A DNA stretch of 64,000 nt from Bispira polyomma (GCA_965649765.1 OZ287759.1:1860001-1924000); one strand, 5' to 3'; shown: positions 14,556-45,205, counted from the first letter of the stretch. Notes: generated by a model from the sequence alone, not told the origin. A program made the numbers and translations.

Positions 14556-14646
<91 letters not shown>
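14556..14646. repeat. (TA)n microsatellite
   Basis: About 45 TA units with one CA interruption. Confidence 0.99.
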
Positions 14647-17689: not shown

Positions 17690-18486
17690 TTTCATCCTCT
17701 GATAGTTTATTATTAAACTTCCAATACCCTTTTCTTCTGCAATGTGTATTAATAAGGTGCAGAGTTAATCTAATAAGACTATGATCTGATTTGTATCCAG
17801 GTTTGATAAGGGTTTCTAGAATATTATATGTAAGGGAATTTGAGATTAAAAAATAATCTAATCTTGATTGCACAACACCAGATTTCGTATTTTCCCTTCT
17901 CGTAAATTTTAATTCCACTGGATTCCTTAATCTCCAAATATCGTTCAGATTAAACTCTTCTGTGAATCCTCTCAAGCTTGCTGCATATTTCGAATTACCC
18001 TCAGGTTTTCCACCCTTCTTATCTAACTTGTAATTTTAGCAGATGTTAAAACCATCTCCAATAATCATATTTTTCCCACTAAATTGTTCTAAGAGCTCTT
18101 GTAGTTTTGTTAAAAATTTCAATTGTAGGTCTGTATGGTCTTTTGTTGGTGCATATATATTGACCAATAATAAAGGATATCCATCAATTGTACAATCTAT
18201 GACAATGCTCCTACCTTCCTCATCAGAAATAACGTTGGATACCTTCACTTTTTCACTGATTTTATTTGGTATTAGAATGGCTACCCCTCTACTTTGGCTA
18301 GTGCCATGTGAAAAATATATATCTCCTTCCCACTCAGAAGCCCATTTATCTTCATCAGATGACAAAGAATGTGTCTCTTGTTTCTAGATATGAACCAATT
18401 GAACACGGTATGTCTTTTATTTGCATCCCTTAGCCCCCTGCAATTAAAGGAGTTGATAGATATTTTGTCATTATGTAAGCTCATTT
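17690..18486 (-). mobile_element. Tx1/L1-clade LINE ORF2 fragment (APE endonuclease only)
   Basis: SFNCRGL, ETHS, SRGVAILI, NIYAP, DIWR..NP, SRLDYFLIS, SDHS and YWKFNN; frameshifted and truncated before the RT. Confidence 0.9.
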
Positions 18487-22368: not shown

Positions 22369-22461
22369 GTAGTCTTTGCAATTGCCAGACTTGTTGACAA
22401 TGGACACACATTTGAAGAAGGGAAGGGGCTGGAAGATCTCACTAAACTGTGAGAGGGCAAG
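22369..22461 (+). pseudogene. NAT16/HisAT-like exon 2 (acetyl-CoA-binding motif A), disabled
   Basis: Acceptor ttttcattag and donor G|GTGAGT. Reads VVFAIARLVDNGHTFEEG then AGRSH*TVRGQG after removing a 5-bp aaggg duplication. Confidence 0.7.
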
Positions 22462-22513
22462 GTGAGTATGATATCTATATTATTACTTTTTATTACGCAC
22501 TACACTATGTAAG

Positions 22514-22646
22514 AGTAGTAGTAAGGGGAGTGATTCACGCTGATGATTAGTGCCCAATTTGTGCCCAATCCCATGTACTTGTGCACAAAATGAAAAAAGC
22601 CCGTGACCTTGAGTCTTTTTGCCCTCTTATAGATTTTTTACTTTGA
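22514..22646 (+). repeat. Left terminal inverted repeat (133 bp)
   Basis: Starts AGTAGTAGTAAGGGGAGTG; reverse complement of 44673-44805 with 2 mismatches. Confidence 0.98.
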
Positions 22647-22829
22647 ATGATTACATTATGAATTGTCCTTTCTAATTGTTCTGTCATACCCAACATTATG
22701 GTTTCAGATTTCAAATTACTCTCGCATTCACAACTCAAATTTTGGGAACATCATAAAATACTATTAAACTATGTACATATTTTATTTATTTTTATATATT
22801 ATTATTTTTTTTTTTTTTACTTGCATTTT

Positions 22830-23040
22830 TAAATACTAACATTGAACACTAAATTACAGTCAATTTTTTATTTCAAAATCTTTCCTTCCCCCTGCTTACA
22901 ATATTCTACATTTTTTAAATACAAACATTGAACACTTACATTATTCTACATTTTTTAAATTCCTAACATTGAACACTTACAATATTTTAATTTTTTTTAA
23001 ATTCTAACTTTGAACACTAACTTACAGTCATTTTTTTTAA
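22830..23040. repeat. Subterminal ~40-bp degenerate repeats
   Basis: The core aaat.ctaacattgaacact occurs 4 times. Confidence 0.75.
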
Positions 23041-23064
23041 ACTTGTTCATTCTTTCTACACATT

Positions 23065-23850
23065 CTAACAGATCCCTGTAGACATCATGGTGTCGTTCTC
23101 TGGTAAGCACTTTTCACACACCAACTTTTCTAACAGATCCACGTGATTTTTGCTGACAATACACGTCACCTCCTCTGCAGCCAGGGGCAGTACCTCATAG
23201 ATCTTCTTGTATACCCTCGTCAGCTCACAAAGATTTTTGTACTTCAGGGATATGCCTTTTCTGGTTGGAAACCATTCATTTTCTCCCAGCTCCTGGTTCT
23301 TGCTGTACCAAACTCTGATATTGGTAGTTTGGTAAGGAATGCAAACAGTAGCAAATATATGTTCACCTAAATGCTCTTTGAAATTTACCTGCAAATCTTG
23401 GAACATATCTCTCAGAAATTACTTTATTTTTTCTAAATTATGCACCAGTGCATTGAAGGTTGGCATAGACATATTCAGGTAATTTCCAATACCACCATCC
23501 TTATGAGTATACATTTGAATCCAGACTTTACCCTGTTGACAATGTACCTTTAGATTTCTACCCATTCCCAGATCAAATGGTTTTTCTAATCCCTCAATAA
23601 CACTCTGTTGTGAAATTTTCTCCTGTTTTTTTTCCTCTAGGCTCGACTCAGCTACTTTAACATCTTCTACTTTGTCTTTCTGCATATTGCCCTGAATTGA
23701 CCTTATTTTTTTTATCTCATCTTTTAAAAAATCTTCTGCTGTAGTCAATTTATTTTGATGTAGATTTATTTTAAGTTGAGTCAATTTTCTTTTTTTAATC
23801 TTTTTCTCACCACTCATCTTGCCCTTGTTTTTTATCACCTCCGAATTCAT
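23065..23850 (-). pseudogene. Tandem PC4-like ssDNA-binding/coactivator protein (one in-frame stop)
   Basis: ORFs 23419-23850 and 23065-23406 are in frame across a TAA (KIK*FLRDMFQ). Motifs FDLGMGRNLKV..QGKVWIQM and NIRVWY..PTRKGISL are PC4-like; basic N-terminus. Confidence 0.75.
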
Positions 23851-24542
23851 TTTTTATTGATTTGATTTGAACCAACTATTTCTCTCATTATTATAATCTC
23901 AGCTCATCTATAAATAACAATTACCTCATTTCTTATAACTATATTACATATTATTTATTCTAATTACTTATTTTACAACTAATTACCAATCTAATTAAAT
24001 ATTTATTCTATTAATCACCATCTCACTGAATCAATTATTTATTTTATTGGTCACTGTGGCCTTATTCTATCCATTACTCATTTATCAGTCATATATACCT
24101 TTTTTTCTCTTTCAAATAAATTCTCTCTTGGGAGATTCCCCCCCTCCCCACACACACCCCCATTTTTTCTCTTGATCTTTGTGTAAATATTCTCCCCACT
24201 TTCAACAAGTCTTCCAGTTTTTTGGCTAATATTGGCACACTGATGACACAGTTACATCTATCTGAATCACTCCATTACCATAAACCACTACTCTGACACA
24301 TTATTTAAATTTTGTCATTCTGACTCAACCCTGTTTAATAATTCTGAATATTTGGTCCTTTTTAAAATTTCACCTACTCGTCATTCTCATTACTCAATAT
24401 GTCTCAACTTCTATATTTGGAAACAATGACACATTGTTTGAAATTATGTCATCTATACTTTTTTGGCACTATATAATCCACTGTTAACCTAATTTGGTCA
24501 CTAATAACTAACTTTTTTTAAATTATACAGAAGAGTTTAGAA

Positions 24543-25055
24543 ATGTCTTCAAAATTTGAGAACACAGTAATCTCACCAGAATGTGTATATTGTGGTTTAA
24601 AAGACCCGCATATATGTGAGGCGCATATCAAGGGTAATCCTAGTGCACATTGCAAGACTTGTCATGGTCTCAAACCCCTGACAGAATTTTACTGCACAGA
24701 GATGGTGCATTTTAAATGTCTTTGGTGTAAAAAGTTCTACAAGTTTTCACCTAACCTTGTTATAGTTCATATTTTACTGTGTGAGAAAACTTTGGTCAAG
24801 ACCCTAGGAGAATACATGAAATGTGCCTGCCAGTGTCAACAGAGTGAATCTGGCTAGAATTTTGGAAAGAAAAAGACTGCAAATTCGTTCACTCTTACAG
24901 ATCCTGCACTTCCAGACGACTCCCCCTTTAGAAAAAGGACCTCTAAAGACACCACCTGCTCTCCTGCCAAAAAAACTAAGAGGACTCTACAAGTTTCTAG
25001 AGCAATACAAACTGACCTACCTCATAATGACTCTTTTTTATCTATGTACACCTAA
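24543..25055 (+). pseudogene. Cys/His-rich putative zinc-binding protein with basic, SP-motif tail (one in-frame stop)
   Basis: CxxC repeats (CVYC, CKTC, CLWC). The frame stays open 65 codons past the TAG at 24855, containing SPFRKR, SPAKKTKR and RAIQTD. Confidence 0.55.
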
Positions 25056-25836
25056 TATGTTTTGACTCTATTTTAGTTTTCTACTGATTTTGAAAATGTT
25101 TTTTTTAATTTATGTAAATATTCTTGCTTATATGTATAATTAATACCTAAATGTTTAAGGCTAATAAAATTTGTGAACTTACAAACAATTATTATATCAT
25201 TGCCTGATTTCAGTCTTGATCTTCTATTTACTTATCTCTGTGAGGACAGGTGACAAATTGTGGGAATCTTGCACAAACCAAACATAAAATCATTTACTGT
25301 AAACCATGAAACCTTTTTTTATTGGATATTTTCCTCTTTTTAAAACTTTGAAATAAGAATTTGATTAAAAATACAATAAATGAACACTCTGCATAACTTT
25401 ATTTTCTTTCCACATTTTAAATAAAATATCTCATCTCTTGAACATTTACAATTTTCCAATTTACCTCTTCACACAAAAAAAAAATATTACGGTAATTTGG
25501 CAGAATTAACCTGTTCCTACTTTTTAAGGGGGGGGGGAGGAATTTTTTCTACAAATTTCTACAAAAATGTTTTAGAAATTTATTCAATTACATCATCTGC
25601 TCTATTCTTGGGAAGCTAACAAAAAATCTAATTCATCTTTTCCCCTCTAAAAAATTATTTTCCCTCCAAAAATATCCACCTGAAATTATTTAAACCTAAT
25701 TAACATCTCATGCATAAATTTGAAGAACCTTCATATAAAAAAGACAATTTATTTAGGAAAAAAATTAATTCCAATTTTTTTTTTTCTATGACTTTACTGA
25801 AGCTATTTATTTTGTGAAAAAATACTAGGAAAAAAA

Positions 25837-25986
25837 ATGTCTTTGAAGTGTCAATGGTGTAACAAAGCCTTAGAGGCTTATGTTATGCTCTCTTGTACAC
25901 ACACAACATGTGTAAAATGTTTTGGTGAATGTGAAGCGTGTATATACTGTGGACTACCATTTAATTATGGATTTTTCATCTATCAG
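25837..25986 (+). CDS. RING-HC finger, exon 1 of a predicted spliced RING/Gln-rich gene
   Basis: C-x2-C-x11-C-x-H-x2-C-x2-C-x6-C-x2-C; phase-0 donor CAG|GTTAGT after 25986. Confidence 0.75.
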
Positions 25987-26670
25987 GTTAGTATTTTGGA
26001 AACTATATTCTTCAAAGTTATGCATGAGATTTAAATTAGCTTGAAATAATTTGAGTGTCAAAACATTGTCTTAGAACGCTTTAAATAAACTATATTTCAT
26101 GAACATAAAGCAAAGGGACCTATTTCATTATTCACACTACATAGAAAATTTTTGTATTATAATAAAAAGATTTTATTTTACTAAATTTCTTTGAACAGAA
26201 GCATGCATTATAGGTCTTTTTTCTATCCATCAATAAAAACTATTTTCTCCAAAACAATTCAACTTAAGAAGGCTTCTGTCAATCTCTGTGTTAATGAATT
26301 CACTACCCCAAAGTTATACATACTATCATCTTTAACCATACATTATAAAATAACTTTACTTGTAACTTACTCATAACACCACTGTCCTAAACATAATATA
26401 ATTTGAAATTCAAATAATAGAGGCTGTAGCTGGAGGTAAAAGAATAATATCATATATAAAGAAATTTGGAAACCCAGAACATTTTAATAAGGCATACTAA
26501 TTAAATTTAAAACTCATCTTCCTCTTGTCATATTCTTAATTTACCCAAATTAATTTAGAATTCATCCTCCTCTGTTTCTTTCCTAGATAAAGACCTGGTC
26601 ACCATCCTGTTTGCACCCTTACCTTTATCCCCTTCCTTGTCTACCTTAGGTTTAACCTGAGTTTCAGAAT

Positions 26671-27035
26671 TTACTGGGAGGGCCTTATAAACAATGTGGT
26701 TTCTTCCTCGTCATTTTGTTCAAGATCCCCCATATCAAATGCTGGTACCCTAAACCTAACACCCTGTCCCCTACACCTTTTACATCTAACCAAAATAAAT
26801 ATAATCACTGTGGGAATACCTCCAGCTACAGCCCCTATCGATAAACTTATTTCAATAATGTGTATTGTTTCTCTCTTGTTTTCCTCTGCTTCATCATCAC
26901 CCTCCTGTCCATTCCTCTCGTCTTCCTTCACTTCCACCCTCCCCTCTTCCTTCATTTCCCCCCTGTCCTCTTCCTTCACTTTCACCCTATCCTCCTCCTT
27001 CTCCTCCTCTTCCCCTTCATCCTCACCTGGTTCAT
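26671..27035 (-). CDS. Type I membrane protein A, last exon (acidic stalk, TM helix, cytoplasmic tail)
   Basis: Acceptor tattctatattgtag, phase 1. Glu-rich stalk, TM IIEISLSIGAVAGGIPTVIIFILV, stop-transfer RCKRCR. Confidence 0.65.
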
Positions 27036-27087
27036 CTACAATATAGAATACATATACCACCTATTAATATTTTTTGACTCTATTTAG

Positions 27088-27909
27088 CAACCAGCATGGG
27101 TGATCCCCATTACTGCCCAGCAACCGGAACAGCAGTCTCAGCGACACCTTCAACTCTTACTACCTCCTCGCCAGCAGCCACAACAACAGGCTGTTCACCC
27201 TCAACAGCAGCACCTAAAACAGGCTGATCAGTCTCAACAACCTCGTCAACCTCAACAGCCACACCTACAACAGGCTGATCAGCCTCAACAACAGGCTCTT
27301 CACCCTCAACAGCAGCACCTACAACAGGCTGATCAGTTTCAACAACCTCGTCAACCTCAACAGCAGCACCTACAACAGGCTGATCAGCCTCAACAACAGG
27401 CTCTTCACCCTCAACAGCAGCACCTACAACAGGCTGATCAGTCTCAACAACCTCGTCAACCTCAACAGCAGCACCTACAACAGGCTGATCAGCCTCAACA
27501 ACAGGCTCTTCACCCTCAACAGCAGCACCTACAACAGGCTATTAGGTCTCAACAGCTGCCACAACATCAGGCTGGACAGCCTCAACAGCAGCACCTACAA
27601 CAGGCTATTCGGTCTCAACAGCTGCCACAACATCAAGCTGATCAGTCTCAACAGTAGCTCCTACAACAGGCTCTTTGGCCTCAACAGCTGCCACAACATC
27701 AGGCTGATCAGCCTCAACAGCAGCTCCTACAACAGGCTCAGCATCCTCAACTACATGACCTACAACAGGCTGAGTACCAATTTCAAGAGTTACCTCTACT
27801 CAGTCTTCAAGATTTAGATGATTTTGAAGATTTTCTGAGAGGGGAGACAATGAATTCCTCTATGGAGGTTAATGTTGACTCCTCTAGTGAGGATGAAGTT
27901 TACTACTGA
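27088..27909 (+). pseudogene. Gln-rich repeat + acidic tail, exon 2 of the RING gene (one CAG>TAG stop)
   Basis: Phase-0 acceptor tttttgactctatttag. Frame-preserving 105-nt and 66-nt tandem units; continues past the TAG at 27655 to LSLQDLDDFEDFL...DSSSEDEVYY*. Confidence 0.7.
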
Positions 27910-28320
27910 TGTAGATTTTGAAGAAGTATCTTATTATCACTCAGTAGTAGATTTTGTAGACGTATCTTAATATCATCTTTTTTATTTCTTTTATTAACTC
28001 AGTAGTAGATTTTGTAGAAGTATCTTACTATCACCTTTTTTATTTCTTTTTTTAATTAAATCTTTTAAAAACTTCTCTTCCAAAGTCTCTTATTTCTATC
28101 AACACAGAACAATAATCATTTATCACAAATTTGTTATTGAAGTGTATTACTGAATCCTTTTTTATACAACTATGTAGATTTTCTAGAACTATCTTAATAA
28201 TACCTTTTTATTTATTTTTTAAAATGAATATTAAATGTATATTAAATGTTTTGATAACTTCACCTTCAAAGTCTATTTTTTCTAACAATAAAGAACAATA
28301 ATCATTTCACACAACTGTGA
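27910..28320. repeat. Local degenerate repeats (gtagattttgtagaagtatctta x4, plus a ~190-bp-period duplication)
   Basis: The motif recurs at ~27912, 27947, 28005 and 28173; caaagtct..gaacaataatcattt at ~28081 and ~28267. Confidence 0.7.
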
Positions 28321-28425
28321 TATTTTTATTTGATTTGTTTTCACAATAACTACACCACCTCCTCAAACAAATAATTCTACCACCACCACCTTAAAGATTT
28401 CTACATCTTAACTAGCTTATAATAC

Positions 28426-28727
28426 CATTTGTCAATTCAGTACATCCTTTGTCAGCTCAGGTATGGGATAATAGGTACAGTCAACTTGGCTACGGACAGT
28501 CTGGAGCACCATTTTAGGAATATTTTCCTTTAAAAGGAAAGTGTCTATCTGAGTGATCTTTCTCTCGTATATAATCAAAATACTGATTTATCATCCGAGA
28601 TTTTGTAAATGTTTGCATTTGTCACAAGCCTGCAATACAGCTTTCCCCCCCTCAGAAAACAACATTCCTGTGCTTCCCCCAACCCCATCCAACAAACTAA
28701 AATAGTGCTCAAAATTAAACACCTCAT
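28426..28727 (-). pseudogene. Type I membrane protein A, signal peptide + Cys-capped ectodomain exon (frameshifted; not in the ORF track)
   Basis: MRCLILSTILVCWMGLGEA|QECCFLRGGKLYCRLV..., then after a frameshift LIIYERKITQIDTFLLKENIPKMVLQTVRSQVDCTYYPIPELTKDVLN. A strong acceptor tttttttgtttgtag lies just upstream of the ATG. Confidence 0.6.
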
Positions 28728-29260
28728 ATTTATCACCTACAAACAAAAAAGATATCTATCAGATATGGATATAGTCATTTGAGAGACAAAACAAATAATC
28801 TCTCATCCCGTTTTACAACGAGGTCATGAATAAAAAGAATAAGCTAACTACTTGATTTGCTCGGGGCTAAACTTCACCCGTCTGCTGAGAAATGTTTCCT
28901 AGAAATACCCATAAGATGCAACAACATTCAAAATTAAACCACCATTTAATTCTAAAAACCATAGAAATGCAAGAAATAGACTAATTTTACAGTAGAATTT
29001 CGTTTATAGTAACTGGACGAATTGTCTGTCCCTGATCGAATAAGGTGTCCGTGCAAGTTGCCTGTTCCGTTTTTCCGAATTAGGTGCCCGCCCGAATCTT
29101 GTGGACTGTCTTACCACCTCCGAGTCATATGGCCCCTCCGAATTGTATAATTTAAACAATAATTGTCCTTCCTTGAATATTACTCTTGTTACTGTTTTAC
29201 CTGAATCGAATATCCTCAAATCTTATGAACCATTTCATATCACAATTGTCAATAATTACT

Positions 29261-29487
29261 GCTTGTGTTTATAATTCGATTGCCTGACATAAATTGGACA
29301 CCATATAATAAATGTGTCATAACTTCAAATTAAATAACTTTATTGACCTAACAATACTGTACTTCCTTGAATATTGGTACTGTAATTGTTTTATATGAAA
29401 CTCGTGGTCCATTTTCTACCTAGATTATTATTTAAAATTTGACAGTCGATTTACAACTGGCGGACGAATTATAACCAGAGGCAGTAC
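29261..29487. repeat. ~220-bp direct repeat, copy 1 (copy 2 at 31835-32045)
   Basis: Shared blocks cataacttcaaattaa, tattgacctaacaata.tgtacttccttgaatatt and cgaattataaccagaggcagtac. Confidence 0.9.
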
Positions 29488-29880
29488 ATTAAACTGTCAG
29501 GTGACATTAATAACACCCTCCACCAATTAAGATCAGCCACCAATATACATCGGTCTGTCAGTCCTGTGTCAGTCAAATCCGAGCAGTTACAAACTGTATA
29601 TATGATCGGATGATTTACAACTAGCGGGCGAATTTTAAACACAGGCAGTATAACCACATAACGCTGTGTAACCCTTTAATGCATATTTTATATTTTTCTC
29701 ACCTCAAATCTTTCTCAAAACTGAAATAATCAGAGATTCCAAGATATTATATTTTCCAAAAGTCGCTTTCAAGGTGACCTTTCACTCTCTACCCTTTACC
29801 GAAATTTCAGTTTGTACTAAATATCATTCTAAAACTTATTCGAATAAGATATTTTTTAATACAATGGTAACATACCGTGA

Positions 29881-30980
29881 TTATTGAAGGGACAGACTAT
29901 CAAATGATCCGAAGGTTGTATCTAAATCTACTTCTATATCTATGTCTCCTCCATTCACATTATCATAACTTTTATAGATATTTTCTTCAACTTCCTCTTG
30001 GTGGTTGTGTAAATGTTGACATTGAGGTTTTTCATACCTATTACAAGAAAGAAATTATTAAAACTATTTTTCTGAAATATTTCTGTGATTAAAAAATTGG
30101 TTTTATATTTTAAATATTAAAAAAATAATTAATTAATATAACTAATATACCAATCACTGTCATTTTCGAAGAATTCAATCTCTCTGGAAGCTGTATATAT
30201 GGGATTAGGTTCCATTTCAAAATCTTCCAATATTAGGTTGTTTGGTGGACTGTTGGAGCTTGCATGTTGTTTTTTACAGTTGCAAATAACTACTGTTATT
30301 CCAAAAATAAAACTCAGTAGAGTACCGATTACAGCTATAATGATAGCTATATCATTAGATATTCCAGTATTACCCTTTGGAGTGATGACAACATCGACTG
30401 TAAAGTCACTGACTGAGCTTATTTCATTTTCTACATCTGCTATGGTAGGGGAGGTAATTTCTGATACATAATTGGAAGTAGTCAGTTCTGGTACTGTATA
30501 TTTAACTGTGTGCACTAGTACTTTTGATGCTCGAAATCTCAGCGGTACTTGAGTAGAAATCTCAGTACTTAACTCAATTTTTGTAACCTCGATAATGGAG
30601 TTGGTGGTCAAGGATGAGGTGGTGCTTTTCAATCCAACAGTGGTCAAAGATGAGGTAGTGGTTTTCAATGCGACACACATGTTGGTGATAATTTCAATAT
30701 CTTTAGGAATCTGATTAAGAATATCACAATCAAATTCTCTCATGGAAATAAATGAAATCCAATATATCTTCGGAAAACTATGAAGAATAACTTGGATATC
30801 CATAAGTTTAACATCCTCAAAATATACCCTTTCAACTAGAGTATTTCTCCCTTCAAATTTCGGGTTATTCACACTCCTACAATTCACTAAAGTTAACCGA
30901 CAAGTACACCTGTAATCACACATTTCTATTGACAGGAATGATATTATACTCAAAAGCAATAGAATCTTGAAGTGAGTCAT
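29881..30980 (-). CDS. Type I membrane glycoprotein B, two exons (30980-30151 + 30037-29881, 328 aa), apparently intact
   Basis: Signal peptide, LRRNT-like CDYRCTCRLTLVNC, Ser/Thr-rich stalk, TM IAIIIAVIGTLLSFIFGITVVI. A 113-nt phase-2 GT-AG intron restores W-YEKPQ...ENIYKSYDNV...SLSLQ*. Confidence 0.8.
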
Positions 30981-31695
30981 TTTAATAGAAATTATTTTAA
31001 AATTTGTTAATTCAATGTCCTATTATATACCACTAGTTCACAGAAATTTATATGTAACTGTTCTCTCCAGTACCCACAATCAAAACTGATTCATTTCTAC
31101 AAACTCTCTATTTCTCAAGTTCTGGATCTTCTATCTCTTGCATAAATAAACATAGCCGCCAAACATAATATCATTAATCTCCTTATAATTGTCACTTTTA
31201 TTGCTCTCTCTGTTTTGGATACAATCTTAACTGTTTTATTACCTAAACAATTCAGTTGAAGTAGATGAATATATAGAAACTGACTTTTCAGTTTGGAACT
31301 AAGAGTATGTTTCCATACAGACGATTGTTTTTTATATTATTTTTTTAGGAGATTTGTAATGGCTAGTTTTTTTTGTTTTTGTTTTTTTTTTTTTTTTAAC
31401 TAGACCGAATAATGAATCCCTATTTAGTGAGATTCCTTGCTGTTATTTTGAAGGCTGAATCATGAAAAGGGACAGAACGGCTTCCATAAGGAAAATGTTG
31501 TAAATCAAAATTGGCATATATAGAGGTAGAATCTGCTAAAAATAAATACACCCCCTCATTCCTTATATATGATATAGTTGCCGATTTTGACTTATTCCAT
31601 GCCAACGAGGTACAGATCAATTAATATAAAATAAAAACGAAATCACAATCACTGAAACAACACTGTCGGGCATGTTATGACAATTTAAATTCTTT

Positions 31696-31832
31696 TAATT
31701 ATTTCCTCAACAATTATTTTCTCGTCATTTGTTTCTACGACAATTATTTTCCTCGACATTTGTTTCTACGTCAATTATTTCCTCGACAATTTATTTCATC
31801 GACATTTATTTCTGCGTCAATTATTTTTTCTA
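31696..31832. repeat. 15-bp minisatellite, about 9 copies
   Basis: Alternating caattatttcctcga and catttgtttctacga units. Confidence 0.9.
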
Positions 31833-31834
31833 TT

Positions 31835-32045
31835 GCTTGTGGTCATAAATCGACCGCCTGTTATAAATCGGCCACCATACAATAAATGTTTCATAACTTC
31901 AAATTAATTTAATGTATTGACCTAACAATATTGTACTTCCTTGAATATTATTATTGTAATTGTTTTACTTTAATTCTATGGTCCATTTTGTACCAAGACT
32001 ATCAATAATTACAACTGGCGAGCGAATTATAACCAGAGGCAGTAC
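31835..32045. repeat. ~210-bp direct repeat, copy 2
   Basis: Matches 29261-29487. Confidence 0.9.
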
Positions 32046-32218
32046 CGTCTCGCTAGATATTTTCGTCATTGGTATTTTAAATGTCTTTAAATTATTTGTT
32101 TTGAATTGATTGATAAATCGAATCTGTTTTAATATTTAAAAAAATTGTATATTTTTAAAACTTTTTTCAATTTAGTTTGGAACGGGGAGTTTTGCATAAG
32201 CTCCATTATCGTTCACAT

Positions 32219-32420
32219 TGTGTTTATGTTATTCGTCATCTTATTTTGTTAGGCGATGACTAAAAGACAATATTGGTTTATTATGGACTTTTGTTTATTA
32301 TTCGTCATTCGTTATTTTGTTTGGTGATGACTAAAAGGCAATATTAGATTACTCAAAATGTGGATTTGTTTATTATTCGTCATCCGTTATTTTGATAGAG
32401 GATGACTAAAGCTAATATCT
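32219..32420. promoter_or_regulatory. Three ~70-bp repeats, each with an inverted GTCAT(C)..(G)ATGAC pair, upstream of pPolB
   Basis: tgtttat.attcgtcat..ttattttg....gatgactaaa at ~32221, 32292 and 32367. A regulatory role is inferred from position only. Confidence 0.55.
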
Positions 32421-32548
32421 TTAATCTTTGAGCAAATATCATCACCGAATGACATCACTCACTATCACATTATTTCTATAAATAAGTTAAATAAGTAGAA
32501 GACATTTGATATGCATATAATTGATTGAATTGATAGGAACAGGAGAAA

Positions 32549-35500: not shown

Positions 35501-37411
35501 ATTTTTAGAATGTTTCCATCATCAACATAGAAACTGTCCCTTAATAGGAAAAAATCAAAATCCAAAATATCATAAAGACAGAGTCATTTCTAAAAAGGGA
35601 AATAGAACGAAAAGACTACATAAAATCTTTAGGATATGACATAGTTGAAATGAGGGAATGTGAGTATCAAGCAGATATTAAGCACAAAACAGAACATATC
35701 AGAGAAAAATATTTATCCAAATTTTATATCAAACACAAAGGTAAGGTTTCAAGCTCTAAACTCATTGAGGCTGTTAAAACAGAAGAAATATTTGGAGCAA
35801 TGGAGGTTGATATAGAAGTGCCTGATTCTTGGAAAGAAACTAACATCTTTTCGAATGGACTCTCCCCAAGTGATTACTTTAGTGAAATGTCCCCTTTCTT
35901 TGCAAGGACAGAGGTACCTTTTGAGGTTGTAGGAGCTCACATGCAGAGACATGCAGAGAATTTTGATTTATCTAAAAAACCTAGAAATTCATTGGTTGGA
36001 GGAATGAAAGCAGAAAGAATTTTTTTAGCCACACCCCTTTTAAAATGGTATTTAGAACATGGTATAGAAATCACTAATATATATCAGGTTGTAGAATATG
36101 TTCCGAAAAATTGTTTTAAAAATTTTAGTCAGAAAATATGTGATAGAAGGAGAGAAGGAGATTTAACCCCTGACAAGGCCCTAATAGCTGAGCTCTCGAA
36201 ACTTTTGGGAAACAGCGGCTTTGGGGGAACAATTATGTCCAAGGAGAGACACCTGGATATTAAATATGTGAAGGGAGAAAGAGAGGCAAGTTTATTAGTC
36301 AATGTCCCTACTTTTAAAAATTTAACTGAATTAGGAAACAGTATGTATGAGGTTGAAAAGTTTAAAAATAGAATTAAACTTGATTTACCAATTCAAATTG
36401 GTTATTTTATTTTACAATATGCCAAGTTAAAACTGTTGTCTTCTTATTATGATTGTCTAGACAGATATATTCCGAGATCAAACTTTGAAATGTTAGAAAC
36501 AGACGCAGATAGTGCCTACTATGCACTTAGTCAAAGTTCTTTTGAAAAAAAGTATTAGACCCTCCTTACTGTCTGAATATCGGAAAGATGTGTGTGGTTT
36601 TTGTTCAAATCTTATCACTCCGAAGTGGTTTCCTAGATTGTGTTGTTCAAAACATATAACTTTCGACAAAAGAACCTTGTCTTTATTTAAAATTGAAAGT
36701 CTTGCTACTAAAGCTATATGCCTGAATTCGAAGACATACATAATGAGAGAACTAAATGAGTCTGATAAAATTTTTTGTAAAGGCATATCAAAGTCAAGTC
36801 TCAATAATGCCATGGAGTTGTTTGAAAGTGTGCTTCATAACCAAATACCACTTTCTTCAACCAATATCGGTTTTAGAGCAAAAAACAATATAATTTTTAC
36901 TTACACACAGGATAGAGCAGGCTTCTCGTACTATTATATCAAAAGGGAGGTTTTGGATGACGGAATTCATACCAAACCATTAAACATGGTTTTGAAACCA
37001 TGGAAACAAAAAATTGTTATAGTTGAAAATGATCTTGACCTACTATCAAACGGTTTTTGCTTTGAGTTGAAAGTCGATGGAAAGACGTATTCAAGTGTTG
37101 AAGAATACTTTCAAGAAAGGGAACATGATTTCAATCCAAATGCAAACACTAGTTTGGAGGAGAATTGGGAGTGGTTTCAAGAAAGAGACAAGATTATGCA
37201 AGAAATTTTAAAATTAAAAGTAAAACAGTGTTGTAATTTTGCTCAGATCTTAAAAAATACTGGGAATTCTTATATATGTTACAATGCTTCAGATAATTTG
37301 TATTGGAATGTGGGTTTACCGCAGAGACTAGTGAAGGTTATAAATAAAGATTCTCATCCAGGTCAAAATCAAATGGGAGAGATATTGATGAAAGTTAGAG
37401 AAACATTATAA
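32549..37411 (+). pseudogene. Protein-primed DNA polymerase B with N-terminal zinc fingers, internal nuclease-like insert and C-terminal NADAR-like domain
   Basis: ZnF CPYC..HLQRH; exonuclease motifs VYDFES, FNSGKYD and YNNLDV; KGVFPYEW; polymerase motifs DSNALY, KLLGNSGFG and ETDADS; end YIKREVLDDGIHTKPL. Multiple stops and frameshifts. Confidence 0.95.
37037..37411 (+). other. NADAR/YbiA-like domain in frame with the pPolB C-terminus
   Basis: LLSN..F..KVDGKTYSSVEEYFQ / W...RDKIM.EILKLKV.Q...F.QILKNTG / YW.VG / PGQNQMGEILMKVRETL follows the NADAR consensus LSNF..DG..Y.S.EHYFQ...KF.Q....L..TG...WG.G...G.N.LG..LM.VR..L. Confidence 0.85.
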
Positions 37412-37413
37412 AA

Positions 37414-38046
37414 ATGTCCATAAAATTTGAAGATCCAGCAAGTATACTTATTCCTGGTTGTAGTAATTCTGGTAAAACCACTTTTCTGTATCAGTTGTTA
37501 AAGTGTAAGGATGCAATGTTCCAGAAACCTGTATGTAAAATACTATACTGCTATTCTCTTTGGCAAAATATTTTTGATAAACTACAAGATGAAATAAATA
37601 TAAAGTTCATTAAGGGTCTGCCTGAGGAGATAGAGATAGATAGCATGAATGACGGGAATCATAATATTTGTATAATAGACGATTTGCAGGAAGAAGTGTC
37701 TGGAAATAAAGTTATTGAAAAATTATACACAACCCTCTGTCATCATTATCACCTCACAGTAATAACTATTTTACAAAATTTATTTTATCAAGGTAAAAGC
37801 TTAAGAACAATCAATTTAAATAGTCATTATTTGATATATATTTAAAAACCCCGAGATATAAATCAAATAATGTATTTAGGAAACCAAACTGGGTTAAAAA
37901 AGACTTTAGAAGAAGCATATAAAAATGCAACAGACGAAAGCTACAATTATCTCTTAGTTGATCTCTCTCTGCACTCATCTACCCAATATAAATTAATAAG
38001 TCATATTTTGCCGAAAGAAGATACTGTGGTATATCTTAGAAAGTAA
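37414..38046 (+). pseudogene. A32/FtsK-like genome packaging ATPase (frameshift near 37840)
   Basis: Walker A GCSNSGKTT, Walker B ICIIDDL, ILQNLF, RTINLNSHY, then FKNPRD and YLLVDL in another frame. Confidence 0.95.
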
Positions 38047-38057
38047 GTAATATAAAT

Positions 38058-38380
38058 ATGAAGGGTAGGCTTAAAATGAATGGAGATTTTGTAAGGTTTT
38101 TATTAAGCACACACATCAAACAAAGATATGCAATAATAAAAACTTTAAATGAAAGACAGACTGGAGTAATTTGGAAATAATTCTCAATATTCTGAGATTG
38201 GTTAATTTGAAAAAGTACAAAACATAAATCAGTAAAACTTTTAGACTTTGGAAGATAATAACCAATAAAAAATGAAAAAGAAAGGAAAAGATTAAACTCC
38301 TAAAAAATAATGACAAAAAAATAATAAGTCTCTTAGATTTGTTTAGGAATGATCTATTAAATTTAATAACAGAATGAATA
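38058..38380 (+). pseudogene. Small basic Polinton ORF downstream of the ATPase, frameshifted
   Basis: MKGRLKMNGDFVRFLLSTHIKQRYAIIKTL...; position typical of Polinton core clusters; broken frame. Confidence 0.45.
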
Positions 38381-38787
38381 AATTTGTGTTGATACCTTAT
38401 GATCGATACAGAATGTTATTAGAATCAAAGGATTAGAGTAGTGGAGATAATCCAAATCCTAAAAATATGATAACTGATACAATATCAAAAGAAACTGAAG
38501 AAAAGAAAACAAAGGAAAATGAAGAAATAGAAAAAAACAATTCTAACAATTTCATTGAAAGTAAAGAGGGAAAAAAAGAGGAATTGGTACAGCATATGAC
38601 AACAGATAAATTAGATGAGAACTTGAAAAACAAGAAAGAACTAAATGAAGAGGTAAACCAAAGGCGTTTGGGACTAAAAGAAATTAAAATACCCCCACCC
38701 GGATTACCACCAAATAAAGACAAAAAGAAAACAGAAAAGGAGAATAGTGCATACAAACACTGGGTAAAAAAATGGGATAAATATTAA
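38374..38787 (+). pseudogene. Conserved small Polinton ORF preceding the integrase (one in-frame stop)
   Basis: MNKFVLIPYDRY start is in frame with ORF 38467; contains PPPGLPP and terminal W..KW..Y. Confidence 0.6.
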
Positions 38788-38835
38788 TATAAAAAGAGAA
38801 AAAAAGCCACAATATGCTTGGATTTTAAATAGACA

Positions 38836-39959
38836 ATGGACGAAAATCAGGAAAAATATCTACACAACCTTTATTACAATCCAAAAAATGCAGTGTCTTA
38901 TAGTGGTTTCAATAAATTTTATAGTTTCATCTAAAAAAACAGTCAGCAAAATTTTTCCAAAAAGGATATTAGGGAATGGTTGGGAAAACAAGATGCTTTT
39001 GTCTTGCATCGACCTGTGATAAGACATTTTAAATGTCCAATTACCATTGCAGTGAGAAAAGATCAACAATGGAATTCAGATACAGCCAATATGAGAAAGT
39101 TTGAAAAAGTCAATAAAGGTTATGGTCATTTTTGTGTAGTGATAGATACTCTAACTAGATATCTGTGGACCTTTCCAATGCAGACACTGACAGGAATAGA
39201 AATGAAAAAAGGTTTTGAAAATTTAATGAAACAGATAAAACCAAAATTTCTATTCACTGACAAAGGCAATGAGTACATGCCTAATATTTAGATTGGTTAA
39301 AGGAAAAAGGAGTTCAACATTTCATGAGCACCAATGAAACAAAGGTGGCGATGGCTGAAAGAGTAATAAAAACAATCAAACTAAAACTGTACCGAAGGAT
39401 GACAGCAGAAAACAATTATAAATGGAATGATGCGCTTGCTAGTCTCACAGAGTCCTACAACAATTCCTTTCATAGAATGATTAAAACCACTCCTTCAAAG
39501 GCGAGGGAAATGGATGATTATGAGTTATGGAAAAATCAATATATTAAAGACTACGATGTGAAAAAACCAAAATTAAAGAAACACAAAAAACCAAGATCAG
39601 AAAAATTACCTTATAAATATAAAATAGGAGATATAGTAAAGGTTGCGTATCTATCCAGACCTTTCGAGAGAGAATATGATGAGAAATATTCTGGTGAAAA
39701 TTTCACCATTGCTGATAGAAATATAAATCAGGGTAAGGCTCAGTACAAATTGAAAGATCTAAATAACGAACTAATATTGGGAAATTTTTTTAATAAGGAA
39801 TTGCAAAAGGTTTATGTTTCTAAAGAGACCACATATCGAATAGAAAAAATTCTGAAAAGTAGAAAAAGAGGGGGTAAAAAGGAATATTTAGTAAGGTGGG
39901 AAAATTATTCCTCAAAATTCGATAGCTGGGTGAAGGAAGAAGACATTCAGGATATATAA
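38836..39959 (+). pseudogene. Retroviral-like (RVE) integrase with C-terminal chromodomain
   Basis: LYYNPKNAVSYSG; DDE triad WNSD, TDKGNEY and AERVIKT; YNNSFHRMIK; chromodomain YRIEKILK..EYLVRWENYSSKFDSWV. Stop and frameshift present. Confidence 0.96.
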
Positions 39960-39997
39960 GTTAAATGTAAAACTATGCAAGGTAAAAATGAACCAAA

Positions 39998-40366
39998 ATG
40001 AATCAATTATACCTACATATTCATTCCACCGATTCGATAAATCTTCACCCACAAAATGATGCATGGGAATTTATTGTAGAAATAGTAGAGGGTATAGAAC
40101 TTGAAGGGAGATGGAAATGTGGTCTAGCAGAAATTAGATATGATAAAGAGGTTGTAGAGGAAATATATGTATATTGTGACATTGTTGATGAAAGTCTGAT
40201 TGAAGATTTTTGTAGACCTATTTTAAGAGTGGTAGATAAAGCTGAACATTACAATCAAATCTACTATAAAAGGGTGAACAGAACAAATCTAGAGAGAATT
40301 AAGGTATATATAACTAGTAAAAACTTAAAAAAACTAAACATTTCAAATACCCCTACGTGGTTTTAA
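39998..40366 (+). CDS. Minor capsid protein (penton, single jelly roll), compact; C-terminus possibly frameshifted
   Basis: LYLHIHSTDS..HPQN..EF...IELEGRWKCGLAEI..IYVYCDIV..PILR..YYKRV..I.VYI. Confidence 0.85.
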   Translation: MNQLYLHIHSTDSINLHPQNDAWEFIVEIVEGIELEGRWKCGLAEIRYDKEVVEEIYVYCDIVDESLIEDFCRPILRVVDKAEHYNQIYYKRVNRTNLERIKVYITSKNLKKLNISNTPTWF

Positions 40367-40387
40367 GTCTTCAAAAAGACAATAACA

Positions 40388-40675
40388 ATGGTTAATTGGA
40401 ATAAGGTTTGTGAAAATATGAGGGAGGGGAAATTGAGAATGGATAGAAAACTATATATGATAGGAGAACAGGCAGGTGGTGGGGGAAATAATGAAAACGA
40501 ACTAGTTAGCATAATTTCTTCTACAGAGCAGCAGGTTGATATGGCTAGATCAGAACTAAAAAAGAAACACAAAAAGGGAAAAGTAGTTAAAAGAAAAATC
40601 AAGAAAGTTACAAAGAGGAAGAAAATAAAACATAGAAAGAAAAAACAAGTTAAAAAAACAAAGAAAAGAAAATAG
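40388..40675 (+). CDS. Basic virion core-like protein with adenain-type glycine site
   Basis: QAGGGG, ISSTEQQVDMARSEL, and a Lys/Arg-rich C-terminus; located between the penton and MCP genes. Confidence 0.65.
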   Translation: MVNWNKVCENMREGKLRMDRKLYMIGEQAGGGGNNENELVSIISSTEQQVDMARSELKKKHKKGKVVKRKIKKVTKRKKIKHRKKKQVKKTKKRK

Positions 40676-40771
40676 TGAATATACCTTAAAAAATATATAC
40701 ATATATAGTGTTAGAGTCAAATAATCTTTAGTTCAATTCTTGCTTTTGAGTGAATAAAAAACAAAATTAAA

Positions 40772-42075
40772 ATGAATGTCTTACAGGAAAAGGTGGCTCT
40801 ATTTCAAAAACTTTTGATAGATCCATCAGTCCATCATATTGATTGGGTTGAATACAGACCAACCGGTCAAATTAAAAGTGGAAATGTAATTGAATTTAAT
40901 GTAACAGGGGATGGGGCGGATTATATAGATTTGAAGAAAAGTAGATTGCATATTTCAATGAAAATTACAAATAGTAATGGAAGTGACTTAGCGTCGACTG
41001 CTATAGTTGGTCCCGTCAATTTAACATTACATTCTCTCTTTCGTCAGGCAGATCTAACTCTACAGCAAATCAATATTTCACCAGGTGTTGGAATTAACTA
41101 TCCATACAAAAGTTTGATAGATGTATGGTTACATAATAGTTTTGTGAGTCAGCAGGGACAGTTGGAAAATGAATTGTTTGCAAATGACACAGCTGATACT
41201 CATAATGATGTAACTGGAGATGACAATATAGGGTTTGCTACTAGGCAAGACAGATGTGCAGCAAGCACAGTAGTGGACTTATGCGGCCCCTTACATGTGG
41301 ATATTGCCGATCAAGATAGACTCATTGTAAACAGAGTGCAGATCAATCTAAAATTATATCCCAGCACTGATAGATTCAGATTAATGACAAAGGATGGAGA
41401 TAAGGAGTATAAGATAGAAATTATTAATGCTGCTTTAAAGATCTGTCAGGTAAAATTAAGTCCCGAGCTCGTACTAGCTCATGCAAAGGCTTTGAAGGTG
41501 GGACCAGCATTATACCCTTTCTGGCAAAGCAAATTTAAGACTTTTACCATACCAAAAGGTAATATGATGTGGAGTGATGATGGAACCTTTCATGGAGAGG
41601 TTCCTAGCAAATTAATTGTGGGTTTTGTTCCAGGAGAAGGTTATAGCGGTAGCTATACTGTAAATCCATTTAAATTTCATCACTACCATTTAAATTACTT
41701 GGAATTCAGTGTAGATGGTGTGCCCGTTCCATGCAGACCACTTCGATCAAATTATAAAGAAGGATATTTGACTAACAGACCTACTTTTACTGGAGGACAA
41801 TACGCAGAAGCATATAATAGCTTGTTTTCTTTGGAGATATGGTGAAAATGAGAACAATCTTATTAAATATACAGATTATCTGAATGGATATTGTCTTTAT
41901 GTGTTTAATATAGACAGTAAATGTGAGTGGTGAACTTAAATCAGAACGTAAAAAGGGTCACACAAGAATAACTGTAAATTTTGGAAAAGCTTTAGTAGAA
42001 AGTGTAACTGCAATATTATATGCTCGTTTCCCATCTATGTTAACTATTGATGAGGCAAGAGTTGTAGAACAATGA
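40772..42075 (+). pseudogene. Major capsid protein (double jelly roll), C-terminal frameshifts
   Basis: WVEYRPT, YIDLKKSRL, PVNLTLHSLF, NYPYKS, NPFKFHHY; ends KGHTRITVNF...TIDEARVVEQ* with the stop overlapping the protease ATG. Confidence 0.93.
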
Positions 42076-42518
42076 ATACTTCTGAAATAAAAGAAAAAAT
42101 GTTGAATGATAGATTCATCAGCAAATATTATGGCGGTGTATATGCAGCAAATGAATTACCAGTAAAATTTCAAAATTTACCTAAAATTCTGATTGTAAAC
42201 ACAAAACCTTACCCTCATGAAGGGGAACATTGGGTAGCAATGTATGTAAGTAAATAAGAGGCGGAATATTTTGATTCTTTAGGTGATTTAGCTCCGAAAA
42301 GTTATGAAAATTTTCTGTTGAGACATCAGGAGAGTTATAGCAAAAATAACGCAAGAGTACAAAGTTACAAGAGCATGTTATGTGGGGAATATTGTCTATA
42401 TTACGCTTACCATAAATTTAGGGGAAAGAGCTATACTGATATCTTAAAGACTTTCGATAAAGATTATAAAGTTAATGATGTGAATATAAAATCATTTTAT
42501 ATTTCGAAATTCATTTAA
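42072..42518 (+). pseudogene. Adenain-like cysteine maturation protease (one in-frame stop)
   Basis: NT...GEHWVA, EYFDSLG, VQ...CGEYC catalytic motifs; both ORF pieces are in the same frame. Confidence 0.95.
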
Positions 42519-42571
42519 AATGCCAATGGTTTAACCTTTTAATCAATAATCATCAAAGTAGATAAATCAAT

Positions 42572-42910
42572 GCTGTCAAAGTAAATATTGACACATTATT
42601 TGGTTAAATTAACAAAGTAAATAATGATGAGGTAATTGGATAAACAAAGCTGTCAAAGTAAATAGTGAGACATTATTTGGTCAAGTTGTCAATGTAAATA
42701 ATGATGAGGTTGTTGGTTAAACAAAGCTGTCAAAGTAAATAATGAGACATTATTTGGTCAAGTTGTCAATGTAAATAATGATGAGGTTGTTGGTTAAACA
42801 AAGCTGTCAAAGTAAATAATGACAGAGTATTTGGATAAATAGTCAAAGTAAATAATGATGAGGTAATTGGTTAAACAATGCTGTCAAGGTAAATAGTGAT
42901 GATGTAATTG
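42572..42910. repeat. 77-bp tandem array (about 4.4 units, each with two related subunits)
   Basis: gctgtcaa at 42572, 42649, 42726, 42803 and 42880. Confidence 0.95.
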
Positions 42911-43025
42911 ATGAATAAATTATGAATTGTGAGTAATGTTTTGGTGAAATAAAAGAAAATGACTCAATTTTAAAAAAGGATATAAATTGGGAAAGCAACC
43001 ACATTGCAGTCAGAAAGGAAACAAG

Positions 43026-43640
43026 ATGGCAGAGAATACAACTCAAAGGAGAACAAGGGAAGATGAGACTGACTGTGTTGTTGCAGCCTCTGCATCTAGT
43101 TATAGAAGAAGAATAGATATGCAAGACAGAATAAGTGAACTGACAAAAAAGTTCTGCAATTTCCAATGTGAAGAAGAATCACTGGCTATGACTAGGGATT
43201 GGGTAGATTACAAAATCTTCAAAAACAGATTAGAAAGTTTCAGAGGTTGGCCAAAAAGTACCGGAGTGAGTGGAGAGGATGCAGCCAGGGGGGGATTTCG
43301 ATACACTGGTTAAGGTGACAGTTGTGTATGTCCGTGGTGTTACATGCAGGTGAAGAACTGGAAACACTTTGATGAACCGTTGAAAATGCACTCCAAACTC
43401 AACCCAAATTGCGAATACGTGCAAACTGTATTCCCTAGTGAATTGTCAAAAATTGAAAGAGGTAATTATAAGTTGTATCAAAATCGTCTGGAAAGCTACA
43501 GAGGGTGGAGCGATGGCAAGATAGTAAAACCAGAAAAGTTAGCCAGAGCTGGATTGATGTACACTGGTTTAGGGGACAGATGTCAGTGCCTCTGGTGTTC
43601 TATAATTTTCCATTCCTAGGAGTACCTGGACGAACCCTAA
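43026..43640 (+). pseudogene. Inhibitor of apoptosis-like protein with two BIR domains (stops; second BIR truncated)
   Basis: RLESFRGWP..AARGGFRYTG*GD..CPWC-x16-H-x6-C; RLESYRGW..LARAGLMYTGLGDRCQCLWC. Intronless. Confidence 0.93.
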
Positions 43641-43751
43641 CTTTCATGTAAATAATATTGAAAATAAAGGTAGTTTAGAAAAAATAGTTGTTCTCATTTC
43701 ACCTTTAAAGAAAAGGGAAAAAAACAACAACACAAAAACAGTAACTTTAAC

Positions 43752-44083
43752 ATGTCACATCTATTGTCAATAAACAATCCAGATTGTGATTCAAAAGCCA
43801 TTATGAGTTGGAAGAAAGAAGGTGAAGGGTTTCAAAATGCTTTAGAACTAAGAGATTTAACAGAGTTCTATAAGAACCAAATCTTTTACAAGAGTATATG
43901 TCAAAGAACTACACATTTGGTTTTGTTACATAAAATAAATATAAGTGAAAGAATTCATTTATGTTTTGAAATAAAAGAATTAACAATGAAAGAACTATTC
44001 ATTAAATGATATGACACAGACAGCAGCTACCACTTTAGCATAAAAAGAATAAAAGGTTTGAATGCGGTGAGATTAAAATTTTA
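43752..44083 (+). pseudogene. Hypothetical protein (frame continues past the TGA at 44007)
   Basis: 85-aa ORF plus 24 further open codons; no family recognised. Confidence 0.35.
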
Positions 44084-44167
44084 AAAAAGGGTTACTTGGC
44101 TATACAAATAAAGTAATAAGGTATAAGAGGGAGGTAGACTTCATAAAAATTTCATTCATTTGTAAAA

Positions 44168-44626
44168 ATGGCTCAAATAAAGACTGAGGTAGATATTGGA
44201 AAAGATATATTGGGAAGAATATTGAATATTAAAAGAAAATCTTTCAGTGAAAGAAATAAATATTTTGGTTTCAACAACATAACAATAAGAGATGAAAGCT
44301 ACAAAAAATTATTCAGAAGTATACCCACTATCAACAAGGCGATAAGGAGAGAAAATACAAAGATGTCTATTAGTGAATCTGAAAAAATTAGAATAACGAA
44401 AGAACTCTCCTATAATAAAATGGGCAAATTCAGAAAGTTTCCGAGGGATATATTATACCTTTCAATATTCAGTGGAGGGAGAGAATTCTCTCTCACTGTA
44501 AGTGATTGGCGACAAATAGTTAAAATGTGGAAGAGAGTAGAAAGGACAGAAAGCTTCTGTTACAAGAATGCTGTACTAAAAGTAGCACCTAAATTAGAAC
44601 CCATGTTCCAACTTGGAGGTTTTTAG
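44168..44626 (+). CDS. Hypothetical protein, possibly divergent tandem PC4-like fold
   Basis: Intact 152-aa ORF with upstream TATAAG. ITIRDESYKKLFRSIPTINKAI and FSLTVSDWRQIVKMW resemble the PC4 ISL..EQW..L...I..I..AI helix motif. Confidence 0.55.
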   Translation: MAQIKTEVDIGKDILGRILNIKRKSFSERNKYFGFNNITIRDESYKKLFRSIPTINKAIRRENTKMSISESEKIRITKELSYNKMGKFRKFPRDILYLSIFSGGREFSLTVSDWRQIVKMWKRVERTESFCYKNAVLKVAPKLEPMFQLGGF

Positions 44627-44672
44627 AAGAAGGTGGTAGTATGTGGAGGTAGCAAAATCCTAATGGATTCAA

Positions 44673-44805
44673 TCAAAGTAAAAAATCTATAAGAGGGCAA
44701 AAAGACTCAAGGTCACAGGCTTTTTTCATTTTGTACACAAGTACATGGGATTGGGCACAAATTGGGCACTAATCATCAGCGTGAATCACTCCCCTTACTA
44801 CTACT
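44673..44805 (-). repeat. Right terminal inverted repeat (133 bp)
   Basis: Ends CACTCCCCTTACTACTACT, followed by TSD TGTAAG. Confidence 0.98.
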
Positions 44806-45205
44806 TGTAAGGTACTCTATTACGATGATATATCGACAAAAAATTGTTTTAAAGGGCGCCAATGAAAATTTATTACAAAAAGACATTTTCGTAACTTTCT
44901 AAAGTTTAAATGTGGAATTTAATCATTTTTGAAACCAGTTATTGAGCTAAATTTACAAATTGATAAAATAGATATCTTAAACAATATTTTAGTACATACA
45001 AGTCAATTTTACACCATTTTAAACATGATTTTGAAGCGATTGTTTTGGGTACCAACTTTATACTTTTATCGTTCTTTCGTTTCAAACTTGCATTGTGACA
45101 TCATGATAGAGAGAAGGTTTTCAAATGTCAACAATGTTTACTATTTTAGGTCAGTTTTTCTTATATTTTGTTTGATTTATAACATGATAATAAAATTACT
45201 GTTCA

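Follow-up and report, generated by a model that had tools for sequence, protein, structure and literature searches.

The 64,000-nucleotide stretch of the Bispira polyomma genome analyzed here (GCA_965649765.1 OZ287759.1:1860001-1924000, hereafter the window) contains a genuine and complete Maverick/Polinton, or endogenous polintovirus, of ordinary layout. The copy is a mutationally dead fossil, and its protein-primed DNA polymerase (pPolB) ends in a NADAR/YbiA domain. We give a probability of about three in four to the reading that a whole polintovirus inserted at this site and then decayed, that its accessory regions came with it, and that its NADAR tail is of a mostly non-catalytic kind. A full-length Maverick with a core and an accessory arm is textbook material; the fusion of polymerase and NADAR, which is shared by many relatives and apparently undescribed, is the part that may matter. 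No link between pPolB or Polintons and NADAR was found in the literature searched, though one might still stand in papers behind a subscription, in Repbase reports, or in supplements beyond those covered. The available portions of PMC11071308, PMC10748475 (text and supplement), the PMC8502044 supplement text, PMC11131425, PMC13215967, and PMC9503650 hold no such link, and the term "ADP" is absent from the available text of PMC12721341.

The element spans 22514-44805 (22,292 bp), beginning with AGTAGTAGT and finishing with ACTACTACT, and is bounded by the following features.

22508-22513: left target-site duplication (TSD), TGTAAG, 6 bp
22514-22664, plus strand: left terminal inverted repeat (TIR), with an (AGT)3 terminus
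44655-44805, minus strand: right TIR
44806-44811: right TSD, TGTAAG, 6 bp, identical to the left copy

An earlier reading of this DNA from its sequence alone (the sequence-only reading) had proposed a Maverick with exact ends and a perfect TSD, and both were recovered, with TGTAAG on either side and (AGT)3 at both termini. The Maverick identity likewise held, since TIRs, a 6-bp TSD, pPolB, an rve integrase, a packaging ATPase, and a maturation protease are all there. A given pair of 6-mers would match by chance in the window with a probability of about 5e-4, and the TIR pair is the sole long inverted repeat in the 64 kb that is not a microsatellite. The termini carry the (AGT)2 or (AG)3 motif that the available part of PMC8097293 gives as the Maverick end signature. 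Presumably, a complete polintovirus genome was inserted by its own rve integrase, which would have left the 6-bp duplication. The earlier count of 2 mismatches over 133 bp of TIR is correct, but the inverted match really extends over 151 bp with 7 mismatches, 5 of which fall within its last 18 bases, so that 2 in 133 is the most favorable cut.

The core (32549-42518) is about 98% gene-covered, with every gene on the plus strand. It was compared with 74 metagenomic loci found with an alignment of the palm region of pPolB, 8 of which exceed 10 kb. The metagenomic relatives L014, L009, and L066 share the identical core order (pPolB, ATPase, two small genes, integrase, penton, basic protein, major capsid protein, then protease) and strand, and their genes from ATPase to protease are open. 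The core features of the window, including small open reading frames (ORFs), are these.

32549-37411, plus strand: pPolB, carrying C2H2 fingers at its N-terminus (intronless; 5 in-frame stops and 4 frame changes)
37004-37408, plus strand: NADAR/YbiA domain at the pPolB C-terminus, into which the last pPolB frame runs without a stop
37414-38046, plus strand: A32/FtsK-type packaging ATPase (Pox_A32 E 2e-3; 44% identity to the L014 ATPase; one stop)
38058-38787, plus strand: two small genes in the ATPase-integrase interval, both disrupted, placed like small ORFs of L014, L009, and L066
38836-39959, plus strand: rve integrase with a C-terminal chromodomain (one stop, one frame change)
39998-40390, plus strand: putative minor capsid gene, short and penton-type (a frame change is probable close to its end)
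40388-40675, plus strand: small basic protein with a GGGG motif, a putative core protein (open; a similar L014 ORF in the same place, by eye)
40772-42075, plus strand: double jelly-roll (DJR) major capsid protein (MCP) gene (two frame changes)
42072-42518, plus strand: Ulp1/adenain-type maturation protease (31-38% identity to L014 and L009; one stop)

The right arm had been described as gene-dense, co-directional, and intronless with abutting stops and starts, and this description was sound: the core genes have no introns, the pPolB stop at 37409-37411 is followed by an ATG at 37414, and an ATGA overlap lies at 42072-42075. The further claim that all virion and replication genes are present stood in that all six core genes occur, colinear with those of the three relatives, but these genes are broken by stops and frame changes. 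Full-length relatives, some matching PF03175 or PF00136 (PF03175 in 2 of the 31 relatives of at least 1,000 aa considered below), align colinearly with the pPolB over about 1,500 aa, and the fragments of the window pPolB gave no direct Pfam polymerase match, PF03175 included. Near 35445-35520, it contains a nuclease-like motif that may be of VSR type. The integrase matches rve at E 3e-3, under the Pfam cut-off, and is 33-35% identical to that of L014, while the two small genes match those of the relatives weakly (E 0.1 and 1e-3), and the L014 protease gives a weak Peptidase_C48/C5 match. The penton gene aligns with the same-position genes of all three relatives (E 3e-8, by sequence alignment). 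As in L014 (13696-14112), it is without the central insertion of about 125 aa found in L009 and L066, and such minimal genes are 122-138 aa long. The MCP is 29-37% identical to its counterparts in the three relatives. Its model is of low confidence (pLDDT 51), and all of its listed fold matches are DJR capsid or scaffold proteins, among them iridovirus, PBCV-1, D13, and mavirus capsid proteins (best E 7e-5). An MCP profile found no match among PDB sequences, nor did viral contigs searched with the MCP and with the pPolB alignment yield one.

The domain at the end of the polymerase, which the sequence-only reading had missed, is a NADAR by both sequence and predicted fold. It matches the Pfam family at E 1.2e-13, above the cut-off, and it is confidently modelled (pLDDT 81-97 over most of its length, with values of 67 and 77 in two blocks of ten residues). 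At E <1e-3, the model has just two matches, 8bau (the NADAR of Phytophthora) and 2b3w (YbiA of E. coli). The window domain resembles these hydrolases in fold and sequence profile and retains equivalents of E43, W89, R93, and W133, but it differs in being fused to a protein-primed DNA polymerase, in having Glu for K50 and Tyr for E125, and in a helical insert about 20 residues shorter.

Relatives carrying the fusion were sought in more than one way. A profile search with a NADAR-containing query returned 1,316 proteins, and relatives were taken from the best 150. Of these, 30 are at least 1,000 aa long, and with P0001 they form a set of 31 long relatives; a Pfam NADAR stands at the C-terminus of 15 of them and exceeds the curated cut-off in 10. 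A purpose-built NADAR profile, made from 17 sequences that match by construction, marks 86 of 152 sequences, partial matches included. The palm-only query, which is unbiased in this respect, gave NADAR in 3 of 35 loci, the other 39 of the 74 having been dropped for a missing polymerase end or for lack of the 450 nt after it; the pPolBs of L014, L009, and L066 end without the domain. On a quick pPolB tree that left open 24 of its 55 inner branches, and where rows labelled "none" may include truncated proteins, the NADAR label clusters (6 changes vs 19.5 when shuffled) but does not form one clade. Among the pPolB relatives, P0055 (1,626 aa) carries two tandem NADAR-like domains at its C-terminus.

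The catalytic residues of active NADAR are E43, K50, and E125, according to the available part of PMC11543638. At these positions the window has E, E, and Y, where active enzymes have E, K, and E. The full triad (E, K, and E or D) occurs together in 2 of 68 rows, those of P0002 and P0016, and most copies are therefore probably non-catalytic. In the E125 column, Tyr stands in 29 of 75 rows, His in 4, and Glu in 2. The Trp equivalent to W89 is present in 62 of 68 rows and that equivalent to W133 in 40, the terminal G-N-G motif and the pocket tryptophans are conserved in most rows, and between 56 and 63 of the 68 keep the core W/G/N/F/L positions. The polymerases that have kept the fusion are only 30-50% identical, which suggests selection. 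Most likely, the tail serves most lineages as a non-catalytic appendage that binds ADP-ribose or DNA and a minority as an active eraser, or else it is possibly a passenger. The polymerase of this lineage would often end in a NADAR/YbiA domain whose catalytic Glu has been replaced in most copies, that of the window among them, with retention of the fold and of some of the phosphate-binding pocket, and such an appendage might help the polymerase to handle ADP-ribosylated templates or ends. Several points count against this account. The figure of 15 in 31 is enriched because the query contained the NADAR domain, the poorly resolved tree needs its 6 label changes and would allow a single origin or several, and the K-to-E change in the window may be post-insertion decay.

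Could the fused NADAR instead serve counter-defence as an active guanine de-ADP-ribosylase, removing from viral DNA at the replication fork the ADP-ribose that the host has added? NADARs, eukaryotic ones included, hydrolyse guanine-ADP-ribose (available parts of PMC11543638 and PMC11125620), invertebrate RNA viruses embed a NADAR in their replicase polyproteins (available part of PMC9503650), and P0002 and P0016 do retain all three catalytic residues. We nevertheless regard this as unlikely, given that 66 of 68 rows, with the window at E/E/Y, lack the full triad and that 32 of the 35 unbiased loci lack the domain itself. It is also improbable that the tail is a functionless passenger that has drifted since an old fusion. 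The highly variable catalytic columns and the patchy occurrence on the tree would suit such drift, but the retention of the core positions across such divergent polymerases and the confident domain model would not.

It is possible, though doubtful, that a widespread and so far undescribed group of animal Mavericks tethers NADAR to its polymerase against ADP-ribosylation of DNA by the host, with few of the domains acting as erasers and most as readers or decoys. If NADAR does bind or remove ADP-ribose, a host defence acting on Maverick DNA would be indicated, and a real infectious cycle would be supported. If the counter-defence reading is true, hosts would ADP-ribosylate Maverick DNA, Mavericks would be tied to an active antiviral conflict, and the orphan biology of animal NADARs, whose role is stated to be unknown in the available part of PMC11125620, would gain a testable context. 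A survey of viral NAD/ADP-ribose systems makes no mention of polintons in its available part (PMC9503650).

Beyond the core, the element carries accessory regions at both ends. The left arm (22665-32548) is 35% ORF-covered, vs 98% for the core, and it is repeat-rich and mixed-strand, as had been noted earlier, with several tandem arrays and ORFs on both strands. The left-arm features, followed by those of the right end, are listed here.

23065-23850, minus strand: PC4-like gene, a single frame with one internal stop that probably encodes two domains of PC4 type
24543-25055, plus strand: Cys/His-rich ORF, putatively zinc-binding (one internal stop; no family)
25837-26034, plus strand: RING finger ORF (Pfam zf-C3HC4_3 E 1e-4, under the cut-off)
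26671-27046, minus strand: acidic ORF with one transmembrane (TM) helix and a short tail
27088-27909, plus strand: Gln-rich tandem-repeat ORF with an acidic C-terminus (one internal stop; no in-frame ATG ahead of the repeats)
29257-32045: spacer with an internal duplication, 29257-29487 and 31831-32045 (77%), putative regulatory repeats
30129-30980, minus strand: type I membrane protein, 283 aa, open, with a TM helix and an NPxY tail
42563-42899, plus strand: 77-bp tandem array, 4.4 copies with 90% matches, between the protease and inhibitor-of-apoptosis (IAP) genes
43026-43640, plus strand: two-BIR IAP gene (Pfam BIR E 3e-17; two stops)
43752-44626, plus strand: two open ORFs of 85 and 152 aa (no family; the second PC4-like by eye only)

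The left arm is probably the element's own DNA, because it has its own GC skew, contains no flank repeats, and has counterparts in relatives, with a PC4 gene in L038 and a membrane-protein gene in L014. The arm has a skew of -0.22, compared with +0.16 for the core and values near 0 for both flanks; the non-ORF DNA of the arm gives -0.23, and 3 of 5 two-kb arm tiles lie below all 20 flank tiles. A comparison of the arm with the repeat-rich flanks gave no BLAST match of at least 60 nt, and no flank repeat enters the element. In L038, a minus-strand PC4 gene lies upstream of pPolB (E 1e-8), and in L014, a membrane-protein gene has the same place, strand, and layout as that of the window, including a weak TM segment and NPxY. 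The lineage would combine a single-strand core with flanking, fast-evolving accessory regions (PC4-like, RING, membrane proteins, and IAP) that arrived with the element. From their domain types, these genes probably acted in transcription (PC4 and RING/Q-rich), cell-surface modulation (membrane proteins), and the blocking of apoptosis (IAP).

Other observations pull the opposite way. The L014 and window membrane proteins show no BLAST similarity (E 3.9), and the TM signal of the former is weak (1.68). None of the 74 loci gave a sequence homolog of the left-arm genes, protein searches with the 283-aa membrane protein and the PC4-like ORF found no homolog, and the negative skew of the arm is absent in L014 and L038. 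Six-frame tiles of both accessory regions also found nothing in the 74 loci. Three sequencing runs from a single study contain 0.51-0.55 of the words sampled from 22100-32000 and may derive from the source sample; no RNA run was among those listed. One could suppose from this dearth of homologs, from the low ORF coverage and the many repeats, and from a GC content and CpG depletion like those of the flanks that the arm is largely host DNA or debris acquired after insertion. We judge this improbable, as the flanks do not share the strongly negative skew, no copies of the flank LINE (long interspersed nuclear element) or repeat families occur in the arm, PC4 and membrane-protein genes stand at equivalent places in relatives, and the total length falls within the published intact range of 12.7-24.6 kb (available part of PMC8097293).

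Individual accessory genes could be described in varying detail. The Pfam PC4 match (E 4e-4, under the curated cut-off) covers the second half of its gene only, the first domain was recognized by eye, and aligning six PC4-like candidates did not show them to be homologous. The 283-aa protein consists of a hydrophobic N-terminus, a Cys cap, a Ser/Thr/Pro stalk, the TM helix, and the NPxY tail, and its Atlas leads are weak and LRR-type (at most 0.86); Atlas leads as a whole were <0.9 or absent. A 35-nt motif recurs around the membrane-protein gene at 29453, 29617, and 32011 (plus strand) and at 31864 (minus strand), partly within the 230-nt duplication, and these repeats are candidate promoter or enhancer elements. 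At 28420-28900 on the minus strand lies a stop-riddled, protein-like frame that may be a decayed accessory gene and has no match in the 74 loci. For the 27.1-27.8 kb repeat, a reading on the minus strand was discarded, since its unit contains recurring stops.

The proposal that the left arm contains introns was not confirmed. The single possible junction is in frame and would splice the RING and Q-rich ORFs (exon 25837-25986; phase 0 at both the donor, 25987, and the acceptor, ahead of 27088) across a putative intron of 1.1 kb, inside which the antisense TM gene would lie. The intronless core has near-consensus donors just as often, with 6 on the plus and 1 on the minus strand over 10 kb, vs 2 and 4, respectively, in the 9.9 kb of the left arm.

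Most of this architecture has precedents. The notion of a two-part genome was supported insofar as a conserved core stands beside a variable accessory arm, but the layout is not new, accessory regions flanking the Maverick core having been described by Barreat and Katzourakis (available part of PMC8097293). According to the same source, vertebrate Mavericks share with the window element (AGT)n termini, a 6-bp TSD, TIR length and total size within range, intronless core genes, and copies that are mostly degraded. They differ from it in having two convergent modules, same-strand modules being reported only for Xenopus tropicalis, whereas the window core is one co-directional block with a short penton, a NADAR-tailed pPolB, and no PZ-sized gene seen. 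Much the same applies to the likening of the left arm to adenoviral early regions. Accessory genes upstream of PolB, namely E1A-like "Oncoid" genes, and IAP and Bcl2 homologs are already known from adintoviruses (Starrett et al., available part of PMC8502044), and no LxCxE motif occurs in the called left-arm ORFs, a single six-frame match lying outside them. As described there, adintoviruses also have PolB, a chromodomain integrase, an FtsK ATPase, hexon, penton, and adenain, and the maps for Mytilus and Pinctada are accompanied by IAP labels. Unlike them, the window gave no Pfam match to PLA2X or gasdermin, and NADAR/YbiA was not found in the adintovirus supplement text so far as available. 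Molluscs and a marine nematode harbor pPolB2 Polintons whose pPolB bears a VSR insertion (Jeong et al., available parts of PMC10748475), and the window pPolB, too, has extra domains; that text leaves NADAR and C2H2 fingers unmentioned, and NADAR and zinc finger are absent from its supplement. Among the metagenomic relatives, L014 also shares the short penton and has an upstream minus-strand membrane-protein gene.

Lesions were mapped against L014, L009, L066, and six full-length pPolBs. The core genes contain 8 in-frame stops and 7 frame changes, with the penton adding a probable eighth, none of which the sequence-only reading had mentioned, so that the core ORFs are not uninterrupted as in an intact Maverick, and the copy is a genomic fossil by the vertebrate Maverick classification (available part of PMC8097293). 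Assuming neutral decay and an error-free assembly, 8 stops in 2,801 core codons correspond to 1.6-2.3% substitutions per site, depending on transition bias (outer 95% range 0.7-4.6%). The TIR divergence per arm, 0.75% over 133 bp or 2.3% over 151 bp, is compatible with this figure either way. The suggestion of a fairly young insertion is supported only loosely, and the copy is dead, its core genes being broken. The polymerase, integrase, ATPase, capsid, and protease would no longer be made following decay of about 1-2% per site that probably set in after insertion. Some of the frame changes could be assembly errors, which would tell against decay, and the in-frame stops are hard to explain in this way. 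Introns behind the pPolB frame changes were rejected; in comparison with four relatives, the window deviates there by no more than -14 to +7 nt, and no insertion of >7 aa occurs within the matches. Across the lesion map, the length at each frame change departs from that of relatives by 14 nt at most. That the element is young and essentially intact, its breaks being assembly errors or introns, is very unlikely: the 2 TIR mismatches in 133, the perfect TSD, and the fact that frame changes are a typical long-read error would favor it, but the 8 core stops, the stops that the PC4, Cys-rich, Q-rich, and BIR genes carry as well, the want of extra DNA at the frame changes, and TIR counts compatible with 1.6-2.3% decay do not.

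In two of the relatives, pPolB is divided at similar places into several ORFs (5860-10159 in L066 and 6546-10932 in L063), which may reflect introns, and L066 also has a dUTPase (4923-5417) upstream of pPolB. As for the DNA around the element, it is LINE-rich and CpG-poor, which would suit the genome of an animal, perhaps a marine invertebrate. A (TA)45 microsatellite at 14556-14646 accounts for many trivial inverted repeats in the window, and a decayed LINE-type endonuclease fragment, recognized by eye, lies at 17553-18383 on the minus strand, with no Pfam match at E 0.01. Other decayed LINE sequence (endonuclease/reverse transcriptase) is held in a block of about 10 kb that occurs twice in the flanks, at 573-11273 and 53833-63012, in the same orientation and with about 79-93% identity, possibly as a segmental duplication or a composite repeat.

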